Shown here one piece after another: positions 2,460-56,725 of a DNA stretch of 64,000 nt (position 1 is its first letter; every line of letters begins with the position of its first letter). Position numbers and translations under genes: made by a program. The stretch spans positions 10,840 through 74,839 of the forward strand of contig DAIDHS010000008.1 of assembly GCA_027451985.1 (NCBI GenBank), written 5' to 3'. A model generated the notes under the pieces. It searched no databases, was not told the DNA's origin, and saw only the letters and a program-made list of their open reading frames with translations. This stretch comes from Elusimicrobiota bacterium. Its GTDB lineage: Bacteria > Elusimicrobiota > Elusimicrobia > UBA1565 > UBA9628.

Positions 2460-2471
2460 GCGCGCTCCGCC

Positions 2472-3391
<920 letters not shown>

Positions 3392-3395
<4 letters not shown>

Positions 3396-4711: not shown

Positions 4712-4782
4712 GCCGGGACATTCTCCCAAAAAATCCCCGTGCTTGCAAGAACGCGGTTTCATTAAGATAAAATACCCACGCC

Positions 4783-6075
4783 ATGGAATTAGATCGGCGG
4801 CTAAAGAACAAATCCGCGCGCATCGGGGTGGTGGGCCTGGGCTACGTGGGCCTGCCGCTGGCCATGGAATTTTGCCGCAAGGGCTTCCGCGTCGACGGCT
4901 ACGAGATCAGCCGGCCGCGCCTGGCCGCCTTGAAGGCCGGGCGCTCCTACGTAGACGACGTGTCCTCCGCCGACGTCGCGCGCTTCTCCAAAAACGGGCT
5001 CTTTAGGGCCCACGGCGGGTTTGACACCCTGGCCGGCTGCGACGCGGTCTTCGTCTGCGTGCAGACGCCGCTGCGCAAGACCGGCGAGCCCAACTTGGCC
5101 CCCATCACCGAGGCGGCCAAGCTCCTGCGCCGCCACGCGCGCAAGGGGCGGCTGGTGGTCATCGAGAGCACGGTGTTCCCGGGTGTGACCCAGGACTGGA
5201 TTTTGCCCATTCTGGCCGAGGGCGGCCGCAAGCTGGGCCGCGATTTTTTCCTGGCCTTCTCGCCCGAGCGCGTCGATCCGGGCAATAGGAGCTACGGCAT
5301 CGCCAACACTCCCAAGGTGGTCGGCGGCGCGGACGCCGAGTCGACCCGCCTGGCCTCTTTGGCCTACGCGCAGATTTTAGGCGAGAAGGTCGTGCCGGTG
5401 TCGAGCTCGCGCGCGGCCGAGGTCGTGAAGCTCCTGGAGAACTCCTTTCGCTCGGTCAACATCGCCTTGGTCAACGAGATGGCGCTCATCTGCCACCGCC
5501 TGGGCCTGGACGTCTGGGAGGTCTTGTCCGCCGCGGCCACCAAGCCCTTCGGCTTCATGCCCTTTTACCCCGGCCCCGGCATCGGCGGCCACTGCATCCC
5601 CAAGGACCCCAAGCTTCTGGCCTGGAAGATGCGCACGCTCAACTTCGAGCCGCGCTTCATCGAGCTGGCCTCGGCCATCAACGGATCCATGCCCGCCCAC
5701 GTGGTCGAGCGCGTGGCCGCTCTCCTTAATAAGGACAAGAAGCCCCTCAACGGCAGCCTGATTCTGGTTTTGGGCGTGGCCTACAAGGCGGGCACCGCCG
5801 ACTACCGGGAATCGCCTTCTTTAGACGTCATGCACCTGCTTTTGGAGGCCAAGGCGCGGGTGATCTACCACGATCCGCACGTGCCGTCCCTGCGTTTAGA
5901 CGGCCGCCTGCTCAAATCCAAGCCGCTGACGGCGTCTTTGCTCCGCGGCGCGGACTGCGCCGCGGTCTTGACCGCCCATCGGGGCGTCGACTACGGCTTG
6001 GTCGCCCGCCTCTCCCGCCGCGTCTTCGACGCCCGCAACGCCGTGCCGTCCGGCCCGCGGGTGGAAAAACTTTAA
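4783..6075 (+). CDS. Nucleotide-sugar dehydrogenase of the UDP-N-acetyl-D-mannosamine / UDP-N-acetylglucosamine 6-dehydrogenase (WecC/WbpA/Cap5O) family
   Basis: RIGVVGLGYVGLPLAMEF N-terminus and GIGGHCIPKDP catalytic Cys motif. 430 aa. Divergent from ugd across a 71-bp promoter region. Confidence 0.8.
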   Translation: MELDRRLKNKSARIGVVGLGYVGLPLAMEFCRKGFRVDGYEISRPRLAALKAGRSYVDDVSSADVARFSKNGLFRAHGGFDTLAGCDAVFVCVQTPLRKTGEPNLAPITEAAKLLRRHARKGRLVVIESTVFPGVTQDWILPILAEGGRKLGRDFFLAFSPERVDPGNRSYGIANTPKVVGGADAESTRLASLAYAQILGEKVVPVSSSRAAEVVKLLENSFRSVNIALVNEMALICHRLGLDVWEVLSAAATKPFGFMPFYPGPGIGGHCIPKDPKLLAWKMRTLNFEPRFIELASAINGSMPAHVVERVAALLNKDKKPLNGSLILVLGVAYKAGTADYRESPSLDVMHLLLEAKARVIYHDPHVPSLRLDGRLLKSKPLTASLLRGADCAAVLTAHRGVDYGLVARLSRRVFDARNAVPSGPRVEKL

Positions 6076-7976: not shown

Positions 7977-10408
7977 CCCCGGCGGCGGCCCGCATGCCAT
8001 ACTCACCTACCTCCGACTACCTGAAGGCCTCCATCGAGGAGACGTTTCGTCTTGTGGAGTCCAGCTCCCTCGGCTTGAGCGGAGCGCAGGCTTCGGAGCG
8101 GCTCGGGCGCTACGGCCGCAACGCCATCGAAGAAAGAAAGGCGAATCCTTTCCTTGAGTTCATCTCTCGCTATTGGGGCCCGATGCCGTGGCTTTTGGAA
8201 CTGGCCATGACGCTCTCGATGTTTCTGGGGCACGAGCTAGAAGCCGCCATCATTTTTTTTCTGCTGACCATCAACGCCGTCATCGGATTCGTCCATTCGC
8301 GCGGCTCCCAAAAAGCCGTTGAATTGCTCAAAAAGCGCCTTGCGATCAAGGCTAGGACTCTCCGCGACGGCGCGTGGTCGCTGATCGAGGCCGGAGATCT
8401 TGTCCCGGGCGACGTGCTGATCCTGCGGTTGGGCGACATCGTGCCGGCCGACGCCAAGATTCTCTCCGGCGACGTGTCGCTCGATGAGTCCGCGCTGACA
8501 GGAGAGTCTTTGCCCGTGGAGCGGCAAGCTTCTGGAATCGCGTACTCCGGATCGGTCGTGCGGCGGGGGGAGGCGCGCTGCGTCGTGGTCAACACGGGCG
8601 CGCTCACCTACTTCGGCCGGACCGCGGAGTTGGTCAAGATCGCCAAGCCGAAGTCGCACCAGGAGGAAGTCATGCTGGCGGTAGTCCGCGACATGATGTT
8701 CGTGGGCGTGGCCGCCTCGATCGCGGTGGCCGCTTACGCCTGGACCATCCACGTCGGCCCAGTCGTCATCATGACCTTCGTGGTCATCTTCCTGATGGGG
8801 GCCGTACCCGTGGCTCTGCCCGCCGTCCTTACCATCGTGCAATCGGCCGCCGCGATGCGCCTGGGCGACGAGGGCATTCTGGTCGCCCGGCTCGACTCCA
8901 TCGAAGACGCCGCGTCCATCAGCGTGCTCTGCCTCGACAAGACCGGAACCATCACGCAAAACAGCCTTTCCGTGGCCGAATGCGCGCCGGCGCGCGGCCG
9001 CTCGGATGCCGAGGTTATTCGCGCCGCGGCGCTGGCGTCGCGCGCGGAAGGGATGGATCCGATTGATTTGGCGGTTCTTGATTGCGCGAAAAAGCGCGGC
9101 CTCGCTTCGGCTCCGGCGCTGCAGATCGGCTATACGCCGTTTAGTCCGGCGACGCGCCGTACGGAGGCTCTGATCGATGACGGCGGCGTCCGCCGCAGGG
9201 TCGTGAAAGGGGCGGCCGCGACAGTGCTGGAGCTTTGCGTCGACGCGCCTGCGGAAGAAATCGCGGAGGCCTACCGGCGCATCGATGAGCTCGCCGCCAA
9301 GGGATACCGCACTCTCGCCGTCGCCCAGAGCGCGGGAGAAAGCTCGGAGCGGCTGGATTTCCTGGGGCTTTTGTCCCTATCCGATCCGGCCCGCCCCGAT
9401 TCGAGGATGATGATCGAAGAGATGCGCGGCCTGGGGATCAAACCGATGATGCTCACGGGCGACAGCCTGCCCATCGCGCGCGAGATCGCGCGCCAAGTCG
9501 GGCTGGGAGAGAACATCATCCGCCTCGCGGACCTTGAGGGCTTGAGCGCCGTCGAGCAAGCGCGGAAGGCGGCGGCCAGCGACGGATTCGCCGGGATATA
9601 TCCCGAGGATAAGTTTAAAATCGTCAAGCTGCTCCAGTCTCAAGGCCTCATGGTCGGAATGACGGGCGACGGCGTCAACGACGCGCCGGCCTTGAAGCAG
9701 GCGGAGATGGGCATCGCGGTCAGCAACGCCGCGGACGTGGCGAAGGCGTCCGCGGCCGTCGTTTTGACCGAGCCGGGCGTAAGCGTCATCGTTGAAGCCA
9801 TCAAGCGCAGCCGCGAGACGCACCAGCGGATGCTGACTTGGGTGATCAACAAGGTGACGAAGGTCATTCAGGTGGTCGGCGTTTTGACCGTGGGCTTTTT
9901 CATGCTGCGCTCGATGGTCCTCTCGCTGCTCGACATGGCGCTTTTGGTTTTCGCCAACGACTTCGTCACGATGTCCTTGGCTACGGATAACGTCAAGAGC
10001 ACGGCCGCGCCCAACCATTGGAGAGTCAAGAACATCACCCTCGCCTCGCTGATTATCGGCGGCTTTCTGGTCATCGAGGGCGTCGCCGCCTTGCTGGCCG
10101 GACGCCGGTATTTTCGCCTCGATCCGCCTCATCTTCAGACTTTGATGATGCTGACGCTGGTCATCACCAGCCAATTCAGGGTGCTGAGCGTCCGGGAAAG
10201 GAGATTCTTCTGGTCGTCCGTTCCCGGGAAGGCCTTGCTGGCATCGAGCGCCGCCGCGATCGCGGCTTTTAGCCTGCTGGGCGCGTGCGGCATTTTCGTT
10301 CCCGCCTTGCCGTGGCGCCAAGTGGCCGCCTGCGCGGCGTTCTCCATGGTTTTCATTTTGGCCCTGGACCCGCTCAAAGTCGCCGCGTTCCGGTTGTTTG
10401 GGATTTGA
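7949..10408 (+). CDS. P-type cation-transporting ATPase (type III, H+/Mg2+-ATPase-like). An alternative start at ATG 7994 would remove the 28-nt overlap with the kinase gene.
   Basis: Phosphorylation motif CLDKTGTITQN, TGES loop ALTGESLPV and hinge MTGDGVNDAPALKQAEMGIAV. About 10 predicted transmembrane segments. Confidence 0.8.
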   Translation: MVEKTFRPLAPAAARMPYSPTSDYLKASIEETFRLVESSSLGLSGAQASERLGRYGRNAIEERKANPFLEFISRYWGPMPWLLELAMTLSMFLGHELEAAIIFFLLTINAVIGFVHSRGSQKAVELLKKRLAIKARTLRDGAWSLIEAGDLVPGDVLILRLGDIVPADAKILSGDVSLDESALTGESLPVERQASGIAYSGSVVRRGEARCVVVNTGALTYFGRTAELVKIAKPKSHQEEVMLAVVRDMMFVGVAASIAVAAYAWTIHVGPVVIMTFVVIFLMGAVPVALPAVLTIVQSAAAMRLGDEGILVARLDSIEDAASISVLCLDKTGTITQNSLSVAECAPARGRSDAEVIRAAALASRAEGMDPIDLAVLDCAKKRGLASAPALQIGYTPFSPATRRTEALIDDGGVRRRVVKGAAATVLELCVDAPAEEIAEAYRRIDELAAKGYRTLAVAQSAGESSERLDFLGLLSLSDPARPDSRMMIEEMRGLGIKPMMLTGDSLPIAREIARQVGLGENIIRLADLEGLSAVEQARKAAASDGFAGIYPEDKFKIVKLLQSQGLMVGMTGDGVNDAPALKQAEMGIAVSNAADVAKASAAVVLTEPGVSVIVEAIKRSRETHQRMLTWVINKVTKVIQVVGVLTVGFFMLRSMVLSLLDMALLVFANDFVTMSLATDNVKSTAAPNHWRVKNITLASLIIGGFLVIEGVAALLAGRRYFRLDPPHLQTLMMLTLVITSQFRVLSVRERRFFWSSVPGKALLASSAAAIAAFSLLGACGIFVPALPWRQVAACAAFSMVFILALDPLKVAAFRLFGI

Positions 10409-10424
10409 TCCCGGCTTCTCGATC

Positions 10425-11144
10425 TTAAAGTTCCCGCGCGAAGGCGTAGGCCGAGACGTCTCGCGCGCCCGCGCGGCGCAGGGACCGGGCGCACTCCTCC
10501 AACGAGGCCCCGGTCGTGCAGACGTCGTCTATAAGGAGCACGCGCAGGCCCCTAAAGAGCGCGGCGTCGGCCGCGAAGGCTCCCGCTAAGTTTTCCAGGC
10601 GCTTTTTGCGGCCCAGCGCCCACTGCGGCTTGGTGTTCTTGAGGCGCGCAAGCCCGCGCTCCATCACCGGAAGGCCCGCGCTTTGCCCCAGAGCCTGGGC
10701 GAGGAGTTCGGCCTGGTTGTAGCCCCGCTCGGCCAGCCTGCGGCGGTGCAGAGGCACGGGAATCAGGACGTCCGGCCGGCCCAGCTCGGGACAGCGCGCC
10801 CAGGCGCGGGCCATGTAGCCGCCAGCCCAGAGCGCGGCAGACTTTCGCCCGCGGTACTTGAAGGCGTGGATGAGGGAGACCGACGCCTCGCGGTAAAGGC
10901 TCGCGGCGCGGATCATCCGGCAGGCGGACGCGTCCGCGCGGCAGGAGGCGCAGAGCCGGCCGCCGGAATCGGGAACGCCGCAGCGCGCGCACCAGGGCCG
11001 GTCCACGGGCCGCAGGCGGAGCAGGCACGCGGCGCAGAGCGGATCGTCCCAGCCGCGCGGCAGATCGCGGCGGCAATGCGCGCAAGTCTGCGGCCAAAGG
11101 AGATCGAGCAGCAGGCCTTTCAAGCGCGCGGCATCCATGCCCAT
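10425..11144 (-). CDS. comF: ComF/GntX-family protein (zinc-finger plus phosphoribosyltransferase domain). Competence/DNA-uptake-associated family.
   Basis: N-terminal Cys4 cluster CAHC...CAAC...CARC...CASC. C-terminal PRTase motif VLLIDDVCTTGASL. The internal ATG at 11144 was chosen as start. The track ORF extends to 11264. Confidence 0.7.
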   Translation of the reverse strand: MGMDAARLKGLLLDLLWPQTCAHCRRDLPRGWDDPLCAACLLRLRPVDRPWCARCGVPDSGGRLCASCRADASACRMIRAASLYREASVSLIHAFKYRGRKSAALWAGGYMARAWARCPELGRPDVLIPVPLHRRRLAERGYNQAELLAQALGQSAGLPVMERGLARLKNTKPQWALGRKKRLENLAGAFAADAALFRGLRVLLIDDVCTTGASLEECARSLRRAGARDVSAYAFAREL

Positions 11145-11282
11145 GATACGAGCCGGGGCGCCCAAAGGTTCCCGCGATTTTGGATAAAGCGGGAGCGTCG
11201 GCGGCGGGGGCTCATCCCCCGCGCTCGGGCCTTCCGAAGCGCCGACCATGAATTTATTGGGCAAGCCGCCTCCCGCAACCGC

Positions 11283-14200
11283 CTAGAACTGGAAGGTCAG
11301 GTTCGTGCCGAACTGGATGGAGATGTAGTCGTTGGTCTTGATGTAGCGGTCGAGCTGCGCGGCCATGGCGCCGTTCAGGGTCAGGCGCAGGTTCTGCGCG
11401 ATCTGGTAGTCCGCGCTGGTGTTGTAGCTGAAGAGCTCGAAGTCGTTGGCCGCGGTCACGGGGGAGTACTTGTAGTCCATGGAGAGCGTGTTGGTCCAGA
11501 TGACGCGGTTGATGAACAAAAGCGGCGACTTCATCAGGAGCGGGATGTAGAGCCCCTTGGGCATGCTGATGTCCGCGCGGCTGATGAGGCTTGGCGTGAC
11601 GTCCGTGTCGTTCTGGGAGTAGACCCCCAGCCCGTTCTCGTTGGTGTCGTGGTTATAGACGACCTTGGGCGTGAGCGAGAACTTGCCCGCGTTGAAGGTG
11701 GTCTGTACCGTGGCGTCCTGGTGGCCGGTGATCTGCGTGTTGACGTCCGCGACGAGGCTCGAGCTGTTGGAGTTGCGGATGTTGGCGCTGATAAGGCTGT
11801 CGTACTTCCTGAAGAGCATGCTGCGCAGGTCCATGCTGTAGGACTGATCCGTGGCCAGGCTCTGCCCCTCGGTCAAGGTGCGGTGCGCCGTGAAGCGAAA
11901 GTCCATCTGGGTGTTCTGCATCCAGGACTTGGTGTTCAGCATCTGTTCCAATTGGCTCATGTTCATGAGCAGGTCCGGCAGGGTCGTCGAGATGACGCGG
12001 GACGGCGTGTTGGTGGTCTGCCCCCGCTGCATGCTGTAGACGTAGTTGTTGGCGATGGAGAGGGTTTTTAGGGGCGCCCAGCGGCCTTTCAAGCCGTAGT
12101 TCTGCAGAGGCAGCCAGCGCTGGGTGGAGTTGACGGTGTCCTGCAGGGTCTGGGTCTGCAGGATGGCCGCGGGGTTGTTGGGGCGCAGGCCCGAGCGGAT
12201 CCAGAGATCTCCCATGGGGTTCAAGCCGCGCTCGACGTTGTTCCACACGTCGCCGTCTTGGAGCTGGTAGCCGTTGACGATGTCCAGGGTCTTCAAGAGC
12301 TTCGAGTTGGGCGCGATCTGGCTGAAGTCGATGGGAAGCGTGACGGCGCCGTTGGAGTTGCGCGTGATGGTCTGCAGGTCGCCGTAGCTGAAGGTGTAGG
12401 TCGAGAGGCCGACGACGATGCTGGTGGTGCTGACGTTCGCCTGCGAGATGGTATTGATGTTGTAGTTGACCTGCGGGTTAAGCCAGCGGTTGATGCGGAA
12501 ATTGGAGGTGAATCCCGCGGTCTGGTTCAAGGAGAGCGGGTAGCTGAAGTCCTGGCCTTGGCCGGAGCTGAAGTTCTGGCGCTTCTCGGTGACGGTGGTC
12601 AGCGCGTAGTTCGGATCGAAGGAGGATCCTGTCCAGGGCACGAAATCGAGCTTCGCGCCGTAGGTGTTGGTGATGTCCGTGGTGTTGTCGTTGCCGGGCT
12701 GTTCCAGGACTGCGAGCGAGTTGTAGTTGACGCTGTATTTGGAATAGGAGTAGGTCAGGTTCACGGTGCGCGGCAAAAAGTGGCTCTGCGTGGGCACGCC
12801 GTACTGCAGGGCCGAGGTGTAGGTCTGCCGGTCGTCGGTCCGCCCCAGGAGATCGTAGTTGATGACGTTGCGCGTGTAGCCCAAGGTCACCTGCGGCAGG
12901 GCGCCCAGGTTGAAGGTGCCCTGCGCGCTGCCGTTCCAGGTGGTGACCTTGCCTTCCTGCAGGAGGTTCACGAAATTGGACAGGCTGCCGGTCTGCGCGA
13001 CGTCGGGGGTGTTGACGACCGCGCGGGAGACGTTGAAGCTCATGGGAAAGTAGCGCAGGCGCGTGACGTTCATGTAGGCGTTGTCGAGCTCGTTGTCCTG
13101 GTTTGAGACCACCGAGGTCGGAGTCTGGAAGTTGCGGTCCACGTAGCGCGACTTGGCGCCGAAGGTGCCCCAATTGGGCACGGAGAAGTCGCCTTGGAAG
13201 TCGTAGGCGTTGCCCACGCGCGTGACGGGCTTGGCCAGGAAGATTTCGTCAAGGTAGAGGGATTCCGAGCCCTCGGCTCCTACGGCGCCGCCGGGCGGGG
13301 CGGTCAAGTGCCAGTACTGCGACGGCCCGGTGGGCTGGGCGTTGGCGTCGAAGGTGTAGCTGGAAAGCTTGACGCCGGCCACCAACTCCGAGACCTGCTG
13401 GAGGTTGGGCACGCCGCTGCTGACGATGACGGTTCCCGGCGGATCCGATCCGTCCGCGCTCCAGCTCTGCGCGACGCGGAAGGCGTTCAAGAGCTGATCG
13501 ACTTTGATGAGCTTCCAGCCCGTGAAGGTGATGGGCACGTCGACTTCGTAGAAGTTTTGGTCCGTGCCGGCGCGCAGGAAGAAGATGTTGTTGTGGCAGT
13601 CCGCGTTGCCGCTGGCGCAGGTGGCGCTGTTGCCGGCCTGCGCGTTTCCGTAGACGAGGAAATCCAACTCCTGGTGCTGGCTCATGTCGATGGCGGGCGT
13701 GAAGACCCGCTTGGTGACCACCACGGCGCTGACCGTGCTGCCGGTCGTGTTGTATTGGGGCTCCTCCACTGAAAGTCCGTTGTACTGCAATTCAAGCGCC
13801 TGCTCCTGGACGTTCTGGGTGTTGGACTGCTGCTGGAGGTTGGCCAAACTGCCGTAGAGTTCGTTGAAGACCGCCTCCGCGTCGCCGCCGGCGTTGTAGA
13901 TGGGGATGTAGTTGGGGTTGGTGGCGTTGTTGATTGGCTCGATAAGCATGTTTTCGCCCGCGATGGGAGGATTGTTGGTTGCGGGGTCGATGGGCGATCC
14001 GTTGAGCCAGGTCTGGCCCAACACCGCGATTTTGGCAAACTTCAAGATGCCGCTGGAGGCGTCGTTGTCGTTGTGCAGGACCGAGATGGTGATGTTCTTG
14101 ATGTTGGTCCAGGCGCTGGCGTTGGCGGTCGAGATGTTCAAGGGAATGTCCAGCACCATCCAGCCCGGGCCCGTGGTCGCGCCGTTGAAGTCGATGTTGT

Positions 14201-17183
14201 CGTGGATGGTGCCGCTGGAGTCCTCAAGGCAGTTGGCGCCGCTGATTGAGCAGTTGGCGTTCTGGGAGAACGACGGATTGAGCGACCTCACGTAGCCGAA
14301 GTTGTCGCCCAGGCCGTCGTCGGGCTTCAAAACGCCCGTGCCGTAGAGGTCCTCCGAGTCGATGCGGCCGTTGTTGGCGCCGATGCGCAGGGAAAGGCTG
14401 CCCGGCGGATAGGTCGTGCCGCCGAAGGTGATGGCCGTTTGCGGGTAGTAGTAGAGCCAGCCGATGTCCTCGCCGGGATCCAAAACCCCGTTGCAGTTCA
14501 AGTCCTCGGTCTTGGCCGCGCCGGTGATGATGGTGCCGTTGGCGCAATAGAGTGTGGTGCCGCCCGTGCCGTCCATGTCGTCGCTGATGCCGCCCAGGCG
14601 GATGTTGAGGTAGTTGTTCGAGTTGTCTCCCAGCATGACGATTTGCAGGATGGTCTTCTGTGAGAAGTCTAGGCCCGTGGTGGAGAAGGGGAAGGTGATG
14701 GACTGCTCCTGGGAATAGGGATCGGAAAAGTCATACTTCAAGTCGAGCACGTTTTGGGTCTGCCCGGAGTTGGCCTGGGCGTTGGGGGTGATGTTTAGGA
14801 TGGGGACGCTTTCGTTATACCAGCTGAGTCTGTTCGGGTCGGTCGGCCCCGTGTCTGACGGATTGCCGGTGCATGCTGTGGTCAAATTGCCGCTCGCCGT
14901 GGGCGAGAGGCTGTTGCAGGTGGGGTTCGTGGCGATGTCCCACGAGCCGTAGAAGAGATCGGCGTCGTTCTCCTGCGAGATGCCCTCCATGTTGTCGATG
15001 ATGGCGTAGCTGTTCAAATTGAACTGCTGGCGGCTCTGCGCCACCTCGGCGCTCAAATTAGTGGCATGCAGGGCGCCGGGAATGACGTCTATGTCCTTGA
15101 GCGCCGTGTTGAAGTCGTAGACCATGAGGCTTTGCGACAAGTCGGTGATGTCGGGCGTGGTCGGGGACTTGGATCCGGCCTGGTAGAGGAGAGTCGTTCC
15201 GATGCTGAAGTGCCGGTTGAAGTCGTAGGACAGGCGTCCGCCCAGGAGCGAGGTGTTGGAGATGCCGCCGAAAGCGGCGACTTCGTAGCTGATGTCGATG
15301 GTCGAGTTGGGCTGGATGCGGTCGGGGTTGAAGAAGGTGATGAAGCCGCCGTTGTAGTCGATGTAGTAGTCCACGTTGCGGTTGAGCTTCTGGTTGTCCA
15401 GGAGCACGATTTCCGACTGCGGCACGATGTTGGGCTCCAAAGTGAAGGTCTTGAAGCGGTAGCTGAACTCCGCGTGGATGATGCGCTCGGAGATGGGCGT
15501 CTGGGCGTAAATCTGCGGGTCCACGGTGGCCGAGTCCCCGACCGCGGCGAAGGGCTGCTGCAGCTGGACGATGCCGTCGGCGAAATCCATGTTGATGGTC
15601 TGGGGGTAGATCTGCTGGGGGTTGAGGCTTGAGCCCACTTCGTTGCGCGTCGTCGGATCGAGCACTTTCAGGATGAAGTTGCCGTGGCCGTTGTCGTTGA
15701 CGATGTCGGTCTGGCCCAGGTTGTAGAAGGTCTTCATCTCCCGGTCCCAGCCGGATTCCGTAGGCGTGGAGATGTAGATGTCCCCGGAGGTCTTGATGAG
15801 CACGGGGCAGGGCAGGGTGTATCCGGCCGGAGCCGCGCCGATGACGCTGGTGGTCTGTCCCGTGCTGGGGTTGTCGTAGCACTGCGGCTGGCCTAGGGAG
15901 GCGTTGGTGGCCACGCTGCTGCTGGACGCCTCGACCGAGACGGTGTTCCCCGAGGCGTCCGTGAAGTCGACGGCCACCACGTCGCCCGGCTGGCGCGGCA
16001 CCCGGAACTGGATGGTGCCGTGGACGTAGTCCATGATGTAGTCCGAGCCCGGGGAGAGCTGGATGAAGCTGCCGGTGTAGGTGGAGCTGTGCACGGCCAG
16101 GTCCTCGGCCGTCAGGGTGACGTTGTTGGCGTTGACCTGGGTGATGTTCTGGTTGGAAAGGTAGACCCGCTCGCTGCCCTGCTTGATGGGCAGGCGCACC
16201 GAGTTTCCGAAGGTCAGGTCGTAGTAGGTGTAGCGGATGTAGGAGGTGTCCGGGAGGTCCTCGGTGACGAACTGGGTGTTGCCGACGAACTGCTTGGTGT
16301 GCGTGACGCCCTGCGTGCGGCTGGCAATCGCCGTAAAGCGCGCGCCCTTGTACTGGAAGTCGCCCCGGATGCCGAAGAGCTGCTTGTCGTAGGAGACGAA
16401 TTCTGTCGAGGGCAGGGACAAATCGATGTCGCCGAAGGAGACGTTCTGAACGACCTCGTTGGGGTCTCCGGTGTAGACCACCGAGATGTCCTGGTGGTTC
16501 TGCTGGGTGTCGTCGTAATCCACGTTGACGGTGATCTTGGGGCCGATTTTGCCCTGCATGCGCAGCTGCAGCTGCTGGTTGATCTGCAGCGCGTTGGTGA
16601 CCGCGGGCTGCCCGGTCGCGTTCTGGGAATGCAGGAAGCGCTTCTCGGTGTAGGATACCCCGACCACTTTGCGGCCCGTGACCGAGAGGCTGGTGCCGTA
16701 GGTGGGGAGTTCCAGCTCCGGCGGCGGAGGGTTGGGCACGCCGGTCGAGATGGCCAAGCCCTGCTGGGCGAAGAACTCGGCCTCCTGCTCGCGCAGCTCC
16801 TGCTGGTGCTCGCGCTGCTCCTCGTTCTGCCGCGCCGCGTTGTACTCCCTCTGCGTGTAGGCGATGGGCGGCAGGGTCTCGATGAACTTGGAGAAGCTCA
16901 CCGGCGCCGGGGCGCTGGCGCTTGAGGCGGGCTGCTCGAACAGGCTCGCGATGACCTCGGTTGACATCAGCACCATCGGCCCCGCATTCTTGATGGCCGC
17001 GGGCGAAACCTGGAGCACGGTCGGCGCGGACTGGGAGGAGCTCTGAACCGAGGAGCTTTGGGTCTGGCTTTGCTGTGGAGAGGAGAAGTCCGGGTCGTAG
17101 GGCGTCGAGAACTGCGCCCAAAGGACTGTTTGCGCGGGAAGATAAGATAAAGCCAGCAGCGCGGCGAAGGCCAGCCGGTGGCG
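11283..17183 (-). CDS. Giant (~1967 aa) outer-membrane protein with a signal peptide and a C-terminal beta-barrel signature (terminal aromatic F). Candidate SprA-like translocon or assembly protein, family unconfirmed.
   Basis: Likely GTG start at 17183 gives the signal peptide VLTRHRLAFAALLALSYLPAQTVLWA|QF. Composition is N/T/S/Q/Y/G-rich with alternating hydrophobic beta-strand patterning over ~1900 aa. The protein ends ...IQFGTNLTFQF, the BAM-type C-terminal motif. The track ORF extends to 17459 with no RBS or signal sequence there. Confidence 0.6.
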   Translation of the reverse strand, partial: RHRLAFAALLALSYLPAQTVLWAQFSTPYDPDFSSPQQSQTQSSSVQSSSQSAPTVLQVSPAAIKNAGPMVLMSTEVIASLFEQPASSASAPAPVSFSKFIETLPPIAYTQREYNAARQNEEQREHQQELREQEAEFFAQQGLAISTGVPNPPPPELELPTYGTSLSVTGRKVVGVSYTEKRFLHSQNATGQPAVTNALQINQQLQLRMQGKIGPKITVNVDYDDTQQNHQDISVVYTGDPNEVVQNVSFGDIDLSLPSTEFVSYDKQLFGIRGDFQYKGARFTAIASRTQGVTHTKQFVGNTQFVTEDLPDTSYIRYTYYDLTFGNSVRLPIKQGSERVYLSNQNITQVNANNVTLTAEDLAVHSSTYTGSFIQLSPGSDYIMDYVHGTIQFRVPRQPGDVVAVDFTDASGNTVSVEASSSSVATNASLGQPQCYDNPSTGQTTSVIGAAPAGYTLPCPVLIKTSGDIYISTPTESGWDREMKTFYNLGQTDIVNDNGHGNFILKVLDPTTRNEVGSSLNPQQIYPQTINMDFADGIVQLQQPFAAVGDSATVDPQIYAQTPISERIIHAEFSYRFKTFTLEPNIVPQSEIVLLDNQKLNRNVDYYIDYNGGFITFFNPDRIQPNSTIDISYEVAAFGGISNTSLLGGRLSYDFNRHFSIGTTLLYQAGSKSPTTPDITDLSQSLMVYDFNTALKDIDVIPGALHATNLSAEVAQSRQQFNLNSYAIIDNMEGISQENDADLFYGSWDIATNPTCNSLSPTASGNLTTACTGNPSDTGPTDPNRLSWYNESVPILNITPNAQANSGQTQNVLDLKYDFSDPYSQEQSITFPFSTTGLDFSQKTILQIVMLGDNSNNYLNIRLGGISDDMDGTGGTTLYCANGTIITGAAKTEDLNCNGVLDPGEDIGWLYYYPQTAITFGGTTYPPGSLSLRIGANNGRIDSEDLYGTGVLKPDDGLGDNFGYVRSLNPSFSQNANCSISGANCLEDSSGTIHDNIDFNGATTGPGWMVLDIPLNISTANASAWTNIKNITISVLHNDNDASSGILKFAKIAVLGQTWLNGSPIDPATNNPPIAGENMLIEPINNATNPNYIPIYNAGGDAEAVFNELYGSLANLQQQSNTQNVQEQALELQYNGLSVEEPQYNTTGSTVSAVVVTKRVFTPAIDMSQHQELDFLVYGNAQAGNSATCASGNADCHNNIFFLRAGTDQNFYEVDVPITFTGWKLIKVDQLLNAFRVAQSWSADGSDPPGTVIVSSGVPNLQQVSELVAGVKLSSYTFDANAQPTGPSQYWHLTAPPGGAVGAEGSESLYLDEIFLAKPVTRVGNAYDFQGDFSVPNWGTFGAKSRYVDRNFQTPTSVVSNQDNELDNAYMNVTRLRYFPMSFNVSRAVVNTPDVAQTGSLSNFVNLLQEGKVTTWNGSAQGTFNLGALPQVTLGYTRNVINYDLLGRTDDRQTYTSALQYGVPTQSHFLPRTVNLTYSYSKYSVNYNSLAVLEQPGNDNTTDITNTYGAKLDFVPWTGSSFDPNYALTTVTEKRQNFSSGQGQDFSYPLSLNQTAGFTSNFRINRWLNPQVNYNINTISQANVSTTSIVVGLSTYTFSYGDLQTITRNSNGAVTLPIDFSQIAPNSKLLKTLDIVNGYQLQDGDVWNNVERGLNPMGDLWIRSGLRPNNPAAILQTQTLQDTVNSTQRWLPLQNYGLKGRWAPLKTLSIANNYVYSMQRGQTTNTPSRVISTTLPDLLMNMSQLEQMLNTKSWMQNTQMDFRFTAHRTLTEGQSLATDQSYSMDLRSMLFRKYDSLISANIRNSNSSSLVADVNTQITGHQDATVQTTFNAGKFSLTPKVVYNHDTNENGLGVYSQNDTDVTPSLISRADISMPKGLYIPLLMKSPLLFINRVIWTNTLSMDYKYSPVTAANDFELFSYNTSADYQIAQNLRLTLNGAMAAQLDRYIKTNDYISIQFGTNLTFQF

Positions 17184-17415
17184 GGTCAGCACCGGATGGG
17201 GCCTTTTCGCTCTCGCCGCGCTGCGTCGCAAAGGCGCCGGCGCGCGGGGGCGGAAAAATCTTCCGCCCGCGAGGGGGAGGGTGGCGCGGCGTCGTTCAAT
17301 ATTTAGCTCACTCTGCTGCGCCGCGGAAAAGTCGCGAATCTTCGTCCGAACGGGAAAGAACCGGTTCCTCTCGCGCGCAAAAATATAAAATAAGTATAGC
17401 TGGGGTCCCGATCTT

Positions 17416-17430
17416 GTCAAGATCGAGGTT
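17416..17430. promoter_or_regulatory. 15-bp palindrome GATCTTGtCAAGATC about 28 nt upstream of the tal ATG, in the divergent tal / giant-OMP promoter region
   Basis: Read directly from the sequence. Adjacent AT-rich stretch AAAATATAAAATAAGTATAG lies between it and the giant-gene start. Confidence 0.3.
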
Positions 17431-17457
17431 GTTAAGACCGCCCCGCAGGAGGAATTC

Positions 17458-18603
17458 ATGGCTCAAACGAAATCCGCTCCGGCCGCCAAGGCCGCTAACC
17501 CGCTCAAGGCCCTTTCGGCCCTGGGCCAGTCGGTCTGGCTCGACTACATTCGGCGCGATCTGATGGCGACCGGCAAGCTCGAGCGTCTGGTGGACGAGGA
17601 CGGCCTGGCCGGGCTCACCTCCAACCCTTCGATTTTCGAAAAGGCCATCGCGGACAGCCCGGACTACGCGCCTACGCTGCGGGAGTTGAAAGCCAAGCCG
17701 GGCCTCTCCGCCATGGACATCTACGAGGCCGTGGCCATCCAAGACATCCGCGCCGCCGCCGACGCCCTGCGCCCGGTCTACGACAAGACCAAGCGCCGGG
17801 ACGGCTACGTCAGCATGGAGGTTTCCCCCTATCTCGCCCGCGACACCAAAGGCACGCTGGCCGAGGCGCGCCGGCTCTGGAAGGCCGTCGGCAAGGAAAA
17901 CCTCATGATCAAGGTGCCCGGGACGCCCGAAGGCATCCCCGCCATCGAGACCTTAATCTCCGAGGGCATCAACGTCAACGTGACGCTCCTGTTTTCCCGC
18001 GATCTCTACGCCAAGGCGGCCTGGGCCTACGTCTCGGGCCTGGAGAAGCGCGCGGCCAAGGGCCAGGAGGTCTCGGGCATCGCCGGCGTGGCCAGCTTCT
18101 TCGTCAGCCGCATCGACACCGCGGCCGACGCCAAGCTCTCCGAACTCGCCAAGGCGGGCGGCAAACGCGCGAAGACCGCCGAGGGCCTAATGGGCAAGGC
18201 TGCCATCGCCAACGCGAAGCTCGCCTACGCGCTTTACAAGGACATCATCGCGGACAAGCGCTGGACCGCGCTGGCCGCCAAGGGCGCCATGACCCAGCGC
18301 CTGCTCTGGGCCAGCACCAGCACCAAGAACCCCAAGTACCGGGACGTCATCTACGTCGAGGAGCTCATCGGCCGAGACACCGTCAACACGGTTCCGCCCG
18401 CGACCTTGGACGCCTTCCGCGACCACGGCCGCGCCTTCGCGACCTTGGACGCGGGCTTGGACGAGGCCAAAGCTCAGCTCTCGGCTTTGGAGGGACTGGG
18501 GATTTCCCTCAAGGCCATCACCGACGATGTCCTGTCCCAGGGCGTCAAGCTCTTCGCCGACGCCTTCGACAAGCTGCTCGCCGCCGTCGGCCGGCCGTCC
18601 TGA
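17458..18603 (+). CDS. tal: Transaldolase (long-type Tal)
   Basis: GQSVWLDYIRRDL, LTSNPSIFEKAI and MIKVPGTPEGIPAIETLISEGINVNVTLLFS contain the Schiff-base Lys region. AGGAGG RBS 7 nt upstream of the ATG. Confidence 0.85.
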   Translation: MAQTKSAPAAKAANPLKALSALGQSVWLDYIRRDLMATGKLERLVDEDGLAGLTSNPSIFEKAIADSPDYAPTLRELKAKPGLSAMDIYEAVAIQDIRAAADALRPVYDKTKRRDGYVSMEVSPYLARDTKGTLAEARRLWKAVGKENLMIKVPGTPEGIPAIETLISEGINVNVTLLFSRDLYAKAAWAYVSGLEKRAAKGQEVSGIAGVASFFVSRIDTAADAKLSELAKAGGKRAKTAEGLMGKAAIANAKLAYALYKDIIADKRWTALAAKGAMTQRLLWASTSTKNPKYRDVIYVEELIGRDTVNTVPPATLDAFRDHGRAFATLDAGLDEAKAQLSALEGLGISLKAITDDVLSQGVKLFADAFDKLLAAVGRPS

Positions 18604-18604
18604 C

Positions 18605-20326
18605 GTGGCGGCCGCGCTGGACGTCAACGCCGTGGAAGCCCGCCTGCCAGAGCCTCTGGCCGGAGAGTCAGCCCGGGCCTTAAGGGAGTGGCAGGACGAC
18701 AAAAAGATGGCGCGCTTGTGGGCCCGCGACGCGAGCCTTTGGACCGGGACGGACGAGGCGAAATGGACGGGCTGGCTCGACGTCATCGAGCGCCAACGGG
18801 CCCGCGTTCCGGAGTTCTCCGCGTTCCAGGGCGAGATCAAAAAGGCCGGATTCTCCCACGCCCTTCTTTTGGGCATGGGAGGCTCGAGCCTGTGCCCCGA
18901 GGTGCTGCGCCTGAGCTTCGCGAAGGCTCCGGGCTTTCCCCAGCTTCTGGTGCTTGACTCCACCGATCCGGAACAGATTCTTTCCTTCGAGCGCCGCATC
19001 GACGCGGGGAAAACCTTGTTCATCGTTTCCAGCAAGTCCGGCGGCACGCTCGAGCCCAACATCCTCATGGACTACTTCTGGGCCGCGGCGCAAAAGGCCC
19101 TGGGCGAGGGCAAAGCCGGAGCGCATTTTATCGCTGTGACCGATCCGGGCTCCGCGCTCGATAGAATCGCGAAGGAGCGCGGATTCAGGCGCGTGTTCCA
19201 CGGCGAGCCTGCCATCGGCGGCCGCTACTCCGCGCTCTCCGATTTTGGGATGGTTCCGGCTGCGGTCATGGGCCTAGACGTCGCCAAATTCCTTGAGACG
19301 GCGCGCGCCATGCAGGAGGCATGCAAGGCGCTCCATCTGGCTGAAAATCCAGGGGCGGTTCTCGGGACGATTCTAGGGACGGCGGCGCGGCGCGGACGCG
19401 ACAAGGCGACGTTCATCGCCTCGCCTGGCATCCGCGGCTTAGGCGCCTGGCTCGAGCAGCTTTTGGCCGAGTCGACGGGCAAGGAGGGCAAGGGCGTCAT
19501 TCCCGTCGATGGGGAGCCCCCGGTCTCGCCTAAAGTTTACGGGTCCGACCGGCTCTTCGTCTACCTGCGCCTGGATGGCGCGCCCGACGCCGCGCAGGAC
19601 GCCGAGGCCGAGGCCTTGGGGAAAGCGGGCCATCCGGTGGTGCGCGTGCGCGTGGCCGACGCCTATCATCTCGGGCAGGAGTTTTTCCGTTGGGAAATCG
19701 CCACGGCCGCGGCCGGCAGCCTCATCGGCATCGATCCGTTCAACCAACCGGACGTGGAGGCGAGCAAGATCGAAACCAAGGCGCTCATGGATCAGTACGA
19801 GAAGACGGGCGCCTTTCCGAACGAGAATCCGATTTTTGAGGAAGGCGGCGTCAAGCTTTTCACGGACGCGGCCGGGGCCAAGGCCCTGGCCGGCGCCGAG
19901 CGCACGCTCTCCGGATATTTGCGCGCGCACGTCGCGCGCTGGACCAGGGGCGACTATTTCGCGCTTCTGGCCTATCTGGAAATGAATCCCGAGCACGAGA
20001 AAATTCTCAACGCGGCGCGGCGGGCCTTGCTGGAGAAGACCGGCGCGGCCGTCTGTTTGGGCTTCGGTCCGCGCTTCCAGCATTCGACCGGCCAGGCCTA
20101 CAAGGGCGGGCCGGCCACGGGCGTGTTCGTGCAGATCACCGCCGACCCGGCCCGGGACGTTTCCGTTCCCGGCAGAAAGTACGCCTTCGGCGCGGTCAAG
20201 GCCGCGCAGGCGCGGGGGGATTTCGCGGTTCTCTCTCAGCGCGGGCGCCGCATTTTGCGCGTGCATCTTCCCGGCGCCAAAAGCCTAGGCGTCTTCGCCG
20301 AGGCCCTGCGCCGCGCGCTGGGCTGA
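18605..20326 (+). CDS. pgi: Glucose-6-phosphate isomerase, of the kind found fused to transaldolase in bifunctional Tal-PGI enzymes. Candidate GTG start 2 nt after the tal stop. A first ATG lies at 18707.
   Basis: ARLWARDASLW N-terminal PGI motif. HALLLGMGGSSLCPEV and FIVSSKSGGTLEPN are the SIS domain. The reading frame is +1 relative to tal. See the finding on possible fusion. Confidence 0.75.
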   Translation: MAAALDVNAVEARLPEPLAGESARALREWQDDKKMARLWARDASLWTGTDEAKWTGWLDVIERQRARVPEFSAFQGEIKKAGFSHALLLGMGGSSLCPEVLRLSFAKAPGFPQLLVLDSTDPEQILSFERRIDAGKTLFIVSSKSGGTLEPNILMDYFWAAAQKALGEGKAGAHFIAVTDPGSALDRIAKERGFRRVFHGEPAIGGRYSALSDFGMVPAAVMGLDVAKFLETARAMQEACKALHLAENPGAVLGTILGTAARRGRDKATFIASPGIRGLGAWLEQLLAESTGKEGKGVIPVDGEPPVSPKVYGSDRLFVYLRLDGAPDAAQDAEAEALGKAGHPVVRVRVADAYHLGQEFFRWEIATAAAGSLIGIDPFNQPDVEASKIETKALMDQYEKTGAFPNENPIFEEGGVKLFTDAAGAKALAGAERTLSGYLRAHVARWTRGDYFALLAYLEMNPEHEKILNAARRALLEKTGAAVCLGFGPRFQHSTGQAYKGGPATGVFVQITADPARDVSVPGRKYAFGAVKAAQARGDFAVLSQRGRRILRVHLPGAKSLGVFAEALRRALG

Positions 20327-20340
20327 GGCGGGAGCCGGAC

Positions 20341-21336
20341 ATGTCCGCGGCCATGATTCTCGCCGGAGACGTCGGAGGGACCAACACGCGCTTGGCGCTC
20401 TTTGCGGCCGGCGCGGCGCTTAAGCCCGCGGTGCTGGACATCTACCCCAGCCGCGACTATGACTCTTTGGGCGCGGCGCTCAAGGCTTTTGCCGCCAAGC
20501 ACGGCGCGGACGTCTCGTCCGCGTGCCTGGGCGTGGCGGGCCCGGTCAAGGACGGCCGCGTCGAGGCCACCAACCTGCCCTGGGACATCGACGCCCGCGC
20601 CCTCGCGCCCTTTCTGGGCGGCGCGCCGGTCCGGCTCTTGAACGATTTGGAGGCCAACGCCTGGGGCTTGGCCGAGCTTTCGGACAAGGACTTCGCGACG
20701 CTCAACCCCGGCGCGCCCGGCGCCGCAGGCCACCAGGCGCTCATCGCCGCGGGCACGGGCCTGGGCCAGGCCCTGCTCATCGACGCGGGCGGCCGCAAGA
20801 CGCCGGTCGCCACCGAGGGCGGCCACGCGGACTTCGCGCCGCGCACGGACGAGGAGGCCGCGCTGCTCGCCTTTTTGCGCGGAAAATTCGGGCGGGTGAG
20901 CTACGAACGGGTGGTCTCGGGCCCGGGCCTCGTCAACATCTATGATTTTTTGCGTCAAGTCCGGAAGATGCACGAGCCCGCCTGGCTCACGGCGGAGATG
21001 AAATCGGAAGATCCCTCGGCCGCGATTTCCAAGGCCGCCTTAGGTGGCCGCGCGGAGATTTGCGCGCGCGCGCTGGAGCTCTTCGTCGCCGTCTACGGCG
21101 CGCAGGCCGGAAACCTGGCGCTCTCGGTGCTCGCGCGCGGCGGGGTGTTCCTGGGCGGCGGCATCGCGCCGAAAATCTTGGGCGAGCTAAGAAAGCCCGC
21201 CTTCATGAGGGCCTTTCTGGACAAGGGCCGGATGAGCCCCGTGCTTGAAACGATTCCGGTGCGCGTGGTGCTAAACGACCACGCCGCGCTCTTGGGCGCG
21301 GCCCGCTGCGCGCTCCAAATGTCCGCCGCCCGCTGA
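20341..21336 (+). CDS. glk: Glucokinase (Glk family, EC 2.7.1.2-type)
   Basis: ILAGDVGGTNTRLALF is the N-terminal ATP-binding motif of bacterial glucokinase. LLNDLEANAWG and GTGLGQALL motifs. 331 aa. Confidence 0.8.
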   Translation: MSAAMILAGDVGGTNTRLALFAAGAALKPAVLDIYPSRDYDSLGAALKAFAAKHGADVSSACLGVAGPVKDGRVEATNLPWDIDARALAPFLGGAPVRLLNDLEANAWGLAELSDKDFATLNPGAPGAAGHQALIAAGTGLGQALLIDAGGRKTPVATEGGHADFAPRTDEEAALLAFLRGKFGRVSYERVVSGPGLVNIYDFLRQVRKMHEPAWLTAEMKSEDPSAAISKAALGGRAEICARALELFVAVYGAQAGNLALSVLARGGVFLGGGIAPKILGELRKPAFMRAFLDKGRMSPVLETIPVRVVLNDHAALLGAARCALQMSAAR

Positions 21337-22563
21337 TTCGGCCGTTTTTTTAGCGCTGTCCTGGGCGGCCACGCGCGCGGCCAAGACGAACTGTCCGAGC
21401 GCCAAAACTCCCACGCCGGCGCCCACGATGCCGAACGAGAGGTAGACGCCGGCGCCCAAAGCGAAGGCGGCGCCCATCAGGGCCTTGAGCAGGACCGAGG
21501 CCGCGTTGGCGCCCAGGCGCGAGGCGGCCGTGACGCCTCCGGCCGCGTCTAAGGGCGTCGCCGCCTGAAGCCGGCGCGCGAGAGAGAGCCTGGCCCCCGT
21601 GTTGGCCAGGGAGAAGAAAAACGCCGCGGCCATCATCACGGCCAGGCCGCCCGGAATCCAGCCCGCGGCCAAGCTGACGGAGCCGACGGCGCCAAGAGCG
21701 ATCCATTTCGCGGCGGAACCCAGGTCGGGAAACCGGCCGTAGAGAAGCGCCCCGCCGACGCCACCCAACGCGAAGGCGGCGCCCAGCCATCCCGCGGCGG
21801 CCGGCGCGTGGAGCAGCCCCTTCGCGAAAAACGCCGAGAAGAGCTTGCGCAAGGGGTAGAGATTGAGCAGCGCCAAGCCGACGCAGGCGAGCAGAAGCGT
21901 CTTGTCCGCAAGCGCCAGCCGCAGGCCCGAAAGGCTTCCGCCGGCGCGGGCTTGGCCCGGGCGCTCGGCCGGACGCGGACGCTGGGGAATGGCGGCGAAG
22001 ATGAGGGCGGCCGCGGCGAAGCCGACCGGGACGGCGGCCTGCGCGGCGATTCCTTTGAGCCAGAGCAGGAAGGCGCCCAGCATCAGGGGGCCGGCCACGC
22101 CGCCTAGTTCGTAGGCCAGTTCGTAGCGGGAGTTGATGAGGTCGAGCGTCTCGGGGTCGTTTTCGCCCAGCTCCAAGGGCACGGTGTGCACCGCGGTGTC
22201 CGTAAATCCCCGCACCAAGGCGTCGAGCGTGTAGGCGGCCATGGCGCGGCCCAGCGTGAGGACCCCGGCCGCCCAGGCGAGCGGAATGAGCGCCAGGGCC
22301 GCGGCGCGCAGGATCGTCGAGAGAATCAGGAGCCGGCGCGCGCCGATGCGGTCGGCGGGCCAGCCGCCCGCGAAGGTCCCCGCCATGTGCACCGCGGTGT
22401 CGAAGGCGGCGAAGAGCGCCGCGTCGCCGAAGGAACGCGAGAGCTTTAAGATGAGCAGCGGCTGGGCCAGATGGAGCGCGCTGTTGGCGAGCTCGGAGAC
22501 GAAGACGCCGCCCAGCAGGCCGCCCAGAGAAACGCGTTTTTGCGCGGCGGCTTCAGGAGCCAT
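21271..22563 (-). CDS. MFS transporter, paralogous to the MFS domain of the upstream fusion protein. Its 3' end overlaps the convergent glk 3' end by 66 nt.
   Basis: About 12 predicted transmembrane segments. Shared motifs with the neighbouring fusion: LLILKLS, LALIPL, NSRYELAYELGG, YPLRKLFSAFFAK, LLYGRF. Confidence 0.7.
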   Translation of the reverse strand: MAPEAAAQKRVSLGGLLGGVFVSELANSALHLAQPLLILKLSRSFGDAALFAAFDTAVHMAGTFAGGWPADRIGARRLLILSTILRAAALALIPLAWAAGVLTLGRAMAAYTLDALVRGFTDTAVHTVPLELGENDPETLDLINSRYELAYELGGVAGPLMLGAFLLWLKGIAAQAAVPVGFAAAALIFAAIPQRPRPAERPGQARAGGSLSGLRLALADKTLLLACVGLALLNLYPLRKLFSAFFAKGLLHAPAAAGWLGAAFALGGVGGALLYGRFPDLGSAAKWIALGAVGSVSLAAGWIPGGLAVMMAAAFFFSLANTGARLSLARRLQAATPLDAAGGVTAASRLGANAASVLLKALMGAAFALGAGVYLSFGIVGAGVGVLALGQFVLAARVAAQDSAKKTAESAGGGHLERAAGRAQERGVVV

Positions 22564-49576: not shown

Positions 49577-49669
49577 CCCTCTGAATTAAGCCGGAGTTAA
49601 GACGCCCTTATCCCGCGCGACAGCGCCGCCCGCTATCCTGAGGGCATGAACGTAGACGGCGGAGGGCTT

Positions 49670-56699: not shown

Positions 56700-56725
56700 C
56701 GCGGCCGTTTTTGTAGAATGTCGCG

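Follow-up and report, generated by a model that had tools for sequence, protein, structure and literature searches.

The window analysed here is the whole stretch of 64,000 nucleotides (nt) from an Elusimicrobiota bacterium (GenBank assembly GCA_027451985.1, contig DAIDHS010000008.1, positions 10,840 to 74,839), with a GC content of about 65%. The gene under study lies on its minus strand at 11283..17192 and encodes a single protein of 1,969 amino acids (aa), rich in T, S, N, L, G and Q. The protein was assigned to the superfamily of SprA (also called Sov), the outer-membrane translocon of the type IX protein secretion system (T9SS). A ComF-like gene follows on the same strand, and a transaldolase gene and a phosphoglucose isomerase (PGI) gene lie divergently on the other side. 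The further neighbours in the window encode a P-type ATPase, a histidine kinase, two UDP-sugar dehydrogenases, an epimerase and a family 2 glycosyltransferase (GT2).

The open reading frame (ORF) listing gives 11283-17459 on the minus strand as an ORF of 2058 aa when read from an ATG. The true start is the GTG at 17192-17190, which yields the 1,969-aa protein beginning VLTRHRLAF and ending at the stop 11283-11285. The GTG was preferred to the ATG because of the N-termini of the homologues, a drop in GC content at third codon positions (GC3), a promoter inside the extension and the overlap with the transaldolase gene. The closest homologue, P0001, begins with VLTRR in agreement with the GTG, and the 91 residues between the ATG and the GTG occurred in no homologue whose N-terminus was compared. 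GC3 was 0.89-0.98 per 200-codon block below the GTG and 0.66 in 17193-17459. The divergent transaldolase gene starts at 17458, where the ATG overlaps it. The promoter, sigma-70-like (TTGACA-16-TATACT, 17420-17393, minus strand) and about 200 nt 5' of the start codon, is a consensus match only, with 11 of 12 positions matching; shuffled sequences would give 0.1 such sites, and 1 was observed. From the promoter-like site to the GTG runs a leader of about 200 nt (17193-17420) that holds a GC-rich hairpin, GGGCGGAAGATTTTTCCGCCC, and for which no Rfam match was found. An Rfam scan of window positions 10000-18000 gave nothing meaningful. The sequence-only reading of this stretch had rightly proposed a GTG start followed by a signal peptide. 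It had placed that start at 17183, an error of 9 nt, and its length of about 1967 aa is replaced by 1,969 aa; otherwise its description of the gene holds.

Several antisense ORFs of 100-690 aa in the ORF listing overlap the gene. These are by-products of GC-rich coding sequence, as had been proposed from the sequence. The gene is real, intact and single. A chance ORF and a chimera joined by frameshifts are both excluded because homologues match over the full length and the codon signal is uniform.

The features of the protein are all encoded on the minus strand. Residue numbers of the protein and its models count from residue 3 (window 11283-17186), so that 2 must be added to obtain true positions. 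A putative signal peptide of about 26 aa, VLTRHRLAFAALLALSYLPAQTVLWA (17115..17192), was read from the sequence; it ends in ...VLWA, and its A-x-A site before Q aligns with the signal peptides of 30 homologues. By sequence and alignment the mature chain opens with QFSTPYDPDF (17085..17114), in which the F, P, D, P, D and F columns are near-invariant. With the preceding alanine, AQFSxPYDPDF is the near-invariant start of the mature protein across the family (QFSxPYDPDF). A variable S/Q/P-rich linker comes next, followed by a highly conserved block from about PPPPE.ELPTYGTSLSVTGRK. The most conserved part of the N-terminal region (YGTSLSVTGRK...QLQLRMQGK.GPKI.VNVDYDD..., 16197..16700) has dense invariant columns, aligns with SprA 159-282 and was predicted as long beta-strands (model residues 68-223 of the N-terminal model described below). 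The central part of about 980 aa (13266..16196) consists of mixed beta domains in the models and holds further collinear SprA matches. It presumably forms inserts or a cap, the cap role being taken from SprA. The C-terminal part of about 660 aa (11286..13265) has 28 consecutive long beta-strands by DSSP of the model and would form the barrel wall. The protein ends in the beta-signal NLTFQF (11286-11303), whose F-Q-F was invariant in 33 and in 61 aligned homologues; this ending had been picked out in the sequence-only reading. A predicted Sec signal peptide and a candidate C-terminal beta-signal for insertion by the beta-barrel assembly machinery (BAM) are thus both present.

The NCBIfam model TIGR04189 (surface_SprA, T9SS outer membrane translocon Sov/SprA) matched the window protein in three stretches with 142.1 bits (E=1.2e-41). 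Relatives scored 143.8 (P0003), 179.7 (P0059), 157.7 (P0233) and 216.6 bits (P0266) on the same model. PF14349 (SprA_N) was listed, as a precomputed match, for 9 of the best 120 listed homologues. As a single query against the PDB the window protein gave no match. A profile of 33 family members searched against the whole PDB matched Flavobacterium johnsoniae SprA and nothing else (E=5.7e-21; 6h3i_A and seven further entries). Five collinear stretches were aligned at 199-321, 388-485, 573-650, 889-1137 and 1170-1244, which are positions of the family profile and not residues. Their counterparts in SprA are 159-282, 435-544, 701-778, 1158-1403 and 1475-1546, respectively. The C-terminal barrel wall had no direct sequence match to SprA.

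Two overlapping halves of the protein, residues 101-1300 and 768-1967, were modelled with AlphaFold2, each with a 61-sequence alignment. The C-terminal model had a mean predicted local distance difference test score (pLDDT) of 79, and its last ~660 residues were mostly at pLDDT 80-95. The N-terminal model had a mean pLDDT of 71 and showed about 8 long strands in residues 168-300, with mixed beta domains after them. In Foldseek searches of the PDB four SprA chains were the sole strong matches for both half models, with template modelling scores on the query (TMq) of 0.36-0.48. E-values against these chains ranged from 1.0e-37 to 3e-25 for the N-terminal model and from 5.8e-28 (8gl8_A) to 6e-22 for the C-terminal model. 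The next matches were far weaker (TonB-dependent receptors 4e-5, reelin 1e-5). Identity to SprA in the structural alignments was 11-15%. The predicted strands, 28 in the last ~660 aa and about 8 in residues 168-300, are compatible with a total of 36, although they were counted in separate half models. The models firmly support a predicted SprA fold, that is, a very large beta-barrel with inserted cap domains. The fold named beforehand as speaking against a barrel, such as a beta-helix adhesin, did not appear; the predicted strand-rich wall matches SprA instead.

A search with phmmer against 1.84 billion representative proteins returned 1,156 relatives, 189 of them at E<=1e-30, including a longer clade of 2,070-2,490 aa. 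The window family and this clade were aligned by hhalign with a probability of 100% (E=8e-150) over 1,510 columns reaching the C-terminus. P0266, a member of the longer clade, clears the TIGR04189 cut-off at 216.6 bits. Because the alignment extends to the C-terminus and P0266 passes the SprA cut-off, the barrel wall can also be placed in the superfamily. The whole protein is therefore firmly assigned to the SprA superfamily as a divergent, shorter branch. In the longer clade the SprA-like gene lies right after ribosomal-protein, rpoA or Sec genes (L088:3511-22106, L089:10001-19165, L090:10001-19488). A conserved fibronectin type III (fn3) protein comes next; in both loci checked (L088 and L089) it has a T9SS-like sorting tail. 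In L088 the SprA-like gene stands between two ~1,830-aa proteins whose tails score 33.1 and 24.6 bits on TIGR04183, both passing, and the preceding gene encodes a protein with glycoside hydrolase family 8 (GH8) and CLIPPER domains and a sorting tail. The protein after the SprA-like gene in L089 has a PorZ-like tail.

A homologue search with the window protein gave 295 matches, whereas no record of the identical protein turned up in the assembly collection. The best 120 were 1,330-1,993 aa long and 45-90% identical, and nearly all covered 92-100% of the query; five shorter or partial entries covered 67-89%. The named entries among these 120 were all called "hypothetical protein" and came from metagenome-assembled genomes (MAGs) of Elusimicrobia or Elusimicrobiota, one Elusimicrobiota MAG protein being 85% identical to the window protein. 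In a scan of one genome per GTDB species relatives were found in 238 genomes. The best 80 of the 238 loci were labelled Elusimicrobia, Elusimicrobiota, Elusimicrobiales, Elusimicrobiaceae, Elusimicrobium or, unlabelled, "bacterium". The SprA-like protein is conserved across the phylum Elusimicrobiota, and the family is unannotated in databases. No publication on SprA or T9SS in Elusimicrobia came up in full-text searches of the literature, and reviews describe T9SS as confined to Bacteroidota or to the Fibrobacteres-Chlorobi-Bacteroidetes (FCB) superphylum (PMC7463736, PMC11205867).

Possible T9SS partners were found near the gene in two related loci. The Elusimicrobia MAG locus L025 carries an orthologue (P0097) that is 46% identical to the window protein. 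Its genes follow on one strand (15545-23781) in the order SprA-like gene, yjbQ, a 178-aa secreted protein, a 320-aa PorV/PorQ-family protein, a 202-aa secreted protein, a 1,621-aa protein and comF. The 320-aa protein scored 144 bits on NF033709 (cut-off 90). The 202-aa protein has an Ig-like (FlgD-Ig-like) tail, and the 1,621-aa protein is a YVTN/PQQ beta-propeller with a T9SS type-A-like sorting tail. This is apparently a compact T9SS-like cluster inserted between the usual pair of SprA-like gene and comF. L052 belongs to a distant branch (42% identity, 54% GC); there a PorV/PorQ-family gene scoring 115 bits on NF033709 lies 1.8 kb from the SprA-like gene. Two short contigs, of unknown taxon, came out of a metagenome search with the PorV-like protein. 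In the PDB, the profile built from four PorV-like proteins matched F. johnsoniae PorV (6h3i_F) and nothing else (E=6.1e-14). The C-termini of 117 signal-peptide-bearing proteins in the flanks of related loci were scanned, and a single match to a T9SS sorting domain of type A came from the final 120 aa of the protein at L025 18151-23013, with 27.3 bits on TIGR04183 (cut-off 23). No shared C-terminal domain was found among the flank ORFs. The L025 sorting tail had no match as a query against a large protein database, and the last 332 aa of the same protein had two Elusimicrobia homologues, both on short contigs. About 1.7 Mb of related loci, together with the window, were also searched by jackhmmer with the sorting tail, the PorV-like protein and both small L025 ORFs, and no additional copies turned up. 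These sparse neighbour associations, the sole direct functional hint, all suggest protein export. A 1,420-aa Ser/Thr kinase with tetratricopeptide repeats (L025:5532-9791, minus strand) was rejected as a GldK candidate at 120 bits against a cut-off of 350; its C-terminal FGE-sulfatase domain is probably a generic SUMF1-type domain on a kinase fusion. Extra ORFs of the apparent family upstream in some loci were discarded as spurious antisense or low-complexity ORFs.

The ComF/ComFC-like gene lies at 10425..11144 on the minus strand and has a double zinc ribbon and a phosphoribosyltransferase domain. The ORF extends over 10425-11264 to a TTG at 11264; the likely start is the ATG at 11144, giving 239 aa. 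The protein scored above the cut-offs of PF18912 (42.7 bits, cut-off 27) and PF00156 (28.7 bits, cut-off 26.3). Below their NCBIfam cut-offs were TIGR00201 (103 against 233.55 bits, E=1.8e-29) and NF008616 (108 against 304 bits). Between the SprA-like and the ComF-like gene of the window no terminator-like site was found, and the two are probably co-transcribed. Adjacency was counted by tblastn in 67 related loci with room downstream. Of these, 31 carried a ComF-like gene as the next gene downstream on the same strand, as in the window, where the sequence-only reading had already noted the pair. Nine more had it no further than 3 kb away, in 5 it lay elsewhere or on the opposite strand, and 22 had none inside 10 kb. 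The two closest relatives, L004 (85% identity) and L001 (72%), have 0.6-1.6 kb inserted between the SprA-like gene and comF. The ComF-like gene is regarded as a conserved neighbour rather than as part of the machine.

Other genes recur beside the SprA-like gene. An lptF/lptG permease pair (PF03739) lies immediately upstream and divergent in 29 Elusimicrobiales-type loci (for example L065:7484-9689). Other loci have glycan genes of the order Bac_transf, DegT and family 4 glycosyltransferase (GT4) upstream on the same strand. Across many loci (L002:3558-7254; L003:197-9807; window 1758-6075) the glycan genes include Bac_transf, DegT aminotransferase, GT4, UDP-sugar dehydrogenases, a hexapeptide transferase, an epimerase and GT2. 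This enzyme set resembles the Wbp-type pathway for the T9SS linking sugar in Porphyromonas (PMC7468200) and is also that of a generic O-antigen-type cluster. The divergent genes next to the SprA-like gene in the window (17458-20326, plus strand) encode a transaldolase of 381 aa and a PGI-like protein of 599 aa, which overlap by 77 nt in different frames and together resemble the bifunctional transaldolase/PGI NF007080. The split is probably natural because it is also found in the relatives L001 and L004.

By analogy with SprA, the window protein probably serves as the translocon of the outer membrane in a T9SS-like route of protein export. The same general mode of action is proposed because the protein shares the fold and the N-terminal block, its strand count is compatible with 36, PorV-family proteins occur in the phylum and some tails match. 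F. johnsoniae SprA is a 36-strand barrel, capped on the outside and with a lateral opening (PMC10994853). PorV docks across this opening with its loops in the pore, and the C-terminal domain of the substrate binds these loops and the cavity wall (PMC10994853). Energy from the GldLM motor is passed through a hub and pulls PorV and the substrate off SprA (PMC10994853). By comparison, the giant beta-barrel of the window would be exported by Sec and then inserted into the outer membrane by BAM. Sec-exported cargo with a sorting domain at its C-terminus would pass from the periplasm into the barrel, as with F. johnsoniae SprA, and would leave it bound to a carrier barrel of the PorV family. Substrates and an energy source would be expected in the source organism on the same analogy. 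The earlier guess at a giant SprA-like outer-membrane translocon thus agrees with the profile, profile-profile and fold evidence, with the function drawn from analogy. A broader proposition is that the Elusimicrobiota, which lie outside the FCB superphylum, universally carry a stripped-down T9SS-like export consisting of a shorter SprA-like barrel and a PorV-like carrier, either without the GldKLMN motor and hub or with a different energiser. This is tentative and rather unlikely.

Several observations weigh against the assignment to T9SS-like export. The 142 bits on TIGR04189 fall under the 200-bit equivalog cut-off, and the window protein matched neither PF14349 nor any other Pfam family at E<1; of the SprA models named for searching by the sequence-only reading, TIGR04189 therefore matched, below its cut-off, and SprA_N did not. 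Barrel closure, strand number and lateral opening are not visible in half models of at most 1,200 aa each. No other T9SS component or sorting-domain protein was found in the 64-kb window, in line with what had been read from the sequence, in Pfam and NCBIfam scans of most predicted proteins, including nearly all of at least 150 aa, and in local jackhmmer searches with partner queries. GldK, GldL, GldM, GldN, PorU, SprE or the like were not seen in the window or in the examined flanks, which were covered by Pfam tables for five loci and by conserved-neighbour clusters and signal-peptide C-termini over about 80 loci, with no model scan of the flanks aimed at these components. Of about 80 related loci, only 2 have a PorV-like gene alongside and only 1 a sorting-tail protein. 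The tail in L025 is a borderline case, scoring 22.3 bits on TIGR04183 within the whole protein and 22.2 on PF18962 (cut-off 27) and resembling FlgD-Ig domains as well. The PorV-like proteins score under the Pfam PorV threshold, and one also matches UPF0164, a spirochaete family of FadL-like outer-membrane proteins. Two of the four sequences in the PorV profile are metagenome sequences of unknown taxon. With housekeeping genes beside it (lptFG, transketolase, comF), the gene is conserved phylum-wide, whereas T9SS is distributed as an accessory system in Bacteroidota, and this could mean another core envelope role.

That alternative was considered plausible but rather unlikely. It holds that the SprA-fold barrel serves a different core role in the envelope, for example in the export or assembly of surface glycoconjugates, lipoproteins or a surface (S-) layer or in general outer-membrane homeostasis, with neither sorting-domain cargo nor a T9SS motor. 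In its favour, the family occurs in at least 238 species genomes in conserved housekeeping neighbourhoods: 29 loci have the lptF/lptG pair upstream and divergent, genes of the Bac_transf-DegT-GT4 set and for UDP-sugar dehydrogenases lie up- or downstream, and transketolase or transaldolase genes are near. To these may be added the window free of T9SS genes, the partners adjoining in only 2 of about 80 loci and the score under the SprA equivalog cut-off. The lpt and sugar-gene neighbourhood may, however, be merely inherited gene order. In Bacteroidota sprA usually lies apart from other T9SS genes, so that missing T9SS neighbours say little. Protein translocation is the sole characterised function of the SprA fold, and the informative neighbours, where present, are PorV-family and sorting-tail proteins. 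The same neighbours argue against a conduit for the uptake or export of DNA or another polymer across the outer membrane, formed by the SprA-like barrel with ComF, a possibility raised by the sequence-only reading. It would fit the ComF-like gene that lies directly downstream on the same strand in nearly half of the loci counted (31/67) or less than 3 kb away (9 more), with no terminator-like site between the pair in the window. Nevertheless, about a third of the loci (22/67) have no comF inside 10 kb, extra DNA splits the pair even in L004 and L001, and in L025 a stretch of 7 kb that holds the PorV-like and the cargo genes lies between the two. The scanned window proteins included no other competence gene product. 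ComF-family proteins are cytoplasmic or associated with the inner membrane, and DNA normally crosses the outer membrane through secretins. For the SprA pore, a role as protein channel is the only one known (PMC10994853). The conduit, for which the comF adjacency is the sole ground, is accordingly very improbable. Least probable of all, to the point of being negligible, is an artefact in the form of a chance ORF in GC-rich DNA, a frameshift fusion or a non-barrel adhesin. High-GC DNA does yield long spurious ORFs, and antisense ORFs do overlap the gene, but each 200-codon block of one frame keeps the high GC3, more than 100 homologues, 1,750-1,990 aa long, match the protein at 45-85% identity over 93-100% of its length, hundreds of alignment columns are invariant and the confident strand-rich models match SprA only.

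Some further genes of the window were noted. A 1,301-aa ORF (22553-26458, minus strand) joins a major facilitator superfamily (MFS) transporter, a thymidylate-kinase, an aminoglycoside phosphotransferase (APH)-type phosphotransferase and a DUF2252 domain in an unusual fusion, and a second MFS gene (21271-22563) lies directly downstream with an overlap of about 10 nt. A 730-aa protein (44733-46925, minus strand) has a nucleotidyltransferase-like middle and a C-terminal CDP-alcohol phosphatidyltransferase (PssA-like) domain and may represent a fused phospholipid head-group pathway. A FlgO/CsgG-like lipoprotein gene (49646-50674, plus strand) lies between OmpR-type and GGDEF-type response-regulator genes. 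The region 53898-59665 (plus strand) encodes a 933-aa glycogen synthase GlgA with extensions of about 195 aa at the N-terminus and about 250 aa at the C-terminus, followed by a 979-aa YVTN beta-propeller/phosphoesterase protein without a recognisable sorting tail.

SprA is the sole known T9SS translocon, and the solved structures are all of the Flavobacterium johnsoniae protein. A clear, shorter and phylum-wide homologue would extend the known range of this transport fold and would explain what one of the largest conserved genes of these poorly known bacteria does. If the stripped-down reading were true, the translocon module would be older and more widespread than T9SS as now defined and may be a core component of the envelope in Elusimicrobiota. 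Lacking ~430 residues, the protein is a naturally minimal variant from which the indispensable parts of SprA might be learned. Whether a translocon can work without the motor and hub of Bacteroidota becomes a testable question, as Elusimicrobium minutum is cultivable.

The window protein was compared with three known groups. It resembles SprA/Sov of F. johnsoniae (PDB 6H3I, 6H3J, 8GL6 and 8GL8; TIGR04189; PF14349) as a giant single-chain outer-membrane beta-barrel with a Sec signal. The two are collinear in sequence over the N-terminal ~1,250 profile positions, both halves are similar in fold, and the N-terminal block corresponds to SprA 159-282. In some relatives the gene also adjoins a PorV-family gene and genes for type-A-like sorting-tail proteins. 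It differs from SprA in being about 430 aa shorter (1,969 against ~2,400 aa), in its phylum-wide occurrence in housekeeping contexts in Elusimicrobiota and in the invariant mature N-terminus QFSxPYDPDF. No GldKLMN/PorKLMN, PorU, SprE or Plug genes were seen near the Elusimicrobiota gene. The downstream protein is similar to ComFC/GntX (TIGR00201, NF008616) in having the PF18912 double zinc ribbon and the type-I phosphoribosyltransferase domain PF00156 in about 240 aa. It differs in scoring under both NCBIfam cut-offs and in having no other competence genes adjoining. The longer SprA-like clade (P0233, P0246, P0266 and P0256, from unclassified MAGs) shares collinear full-length homology with the window protein, and its members are likewise all named "hypothetical protein". 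It is set apart by about 400 additional aa at the N-terminus, with faint fn3 matches, and by higher scores of 158-217 bits on TIGR04189.

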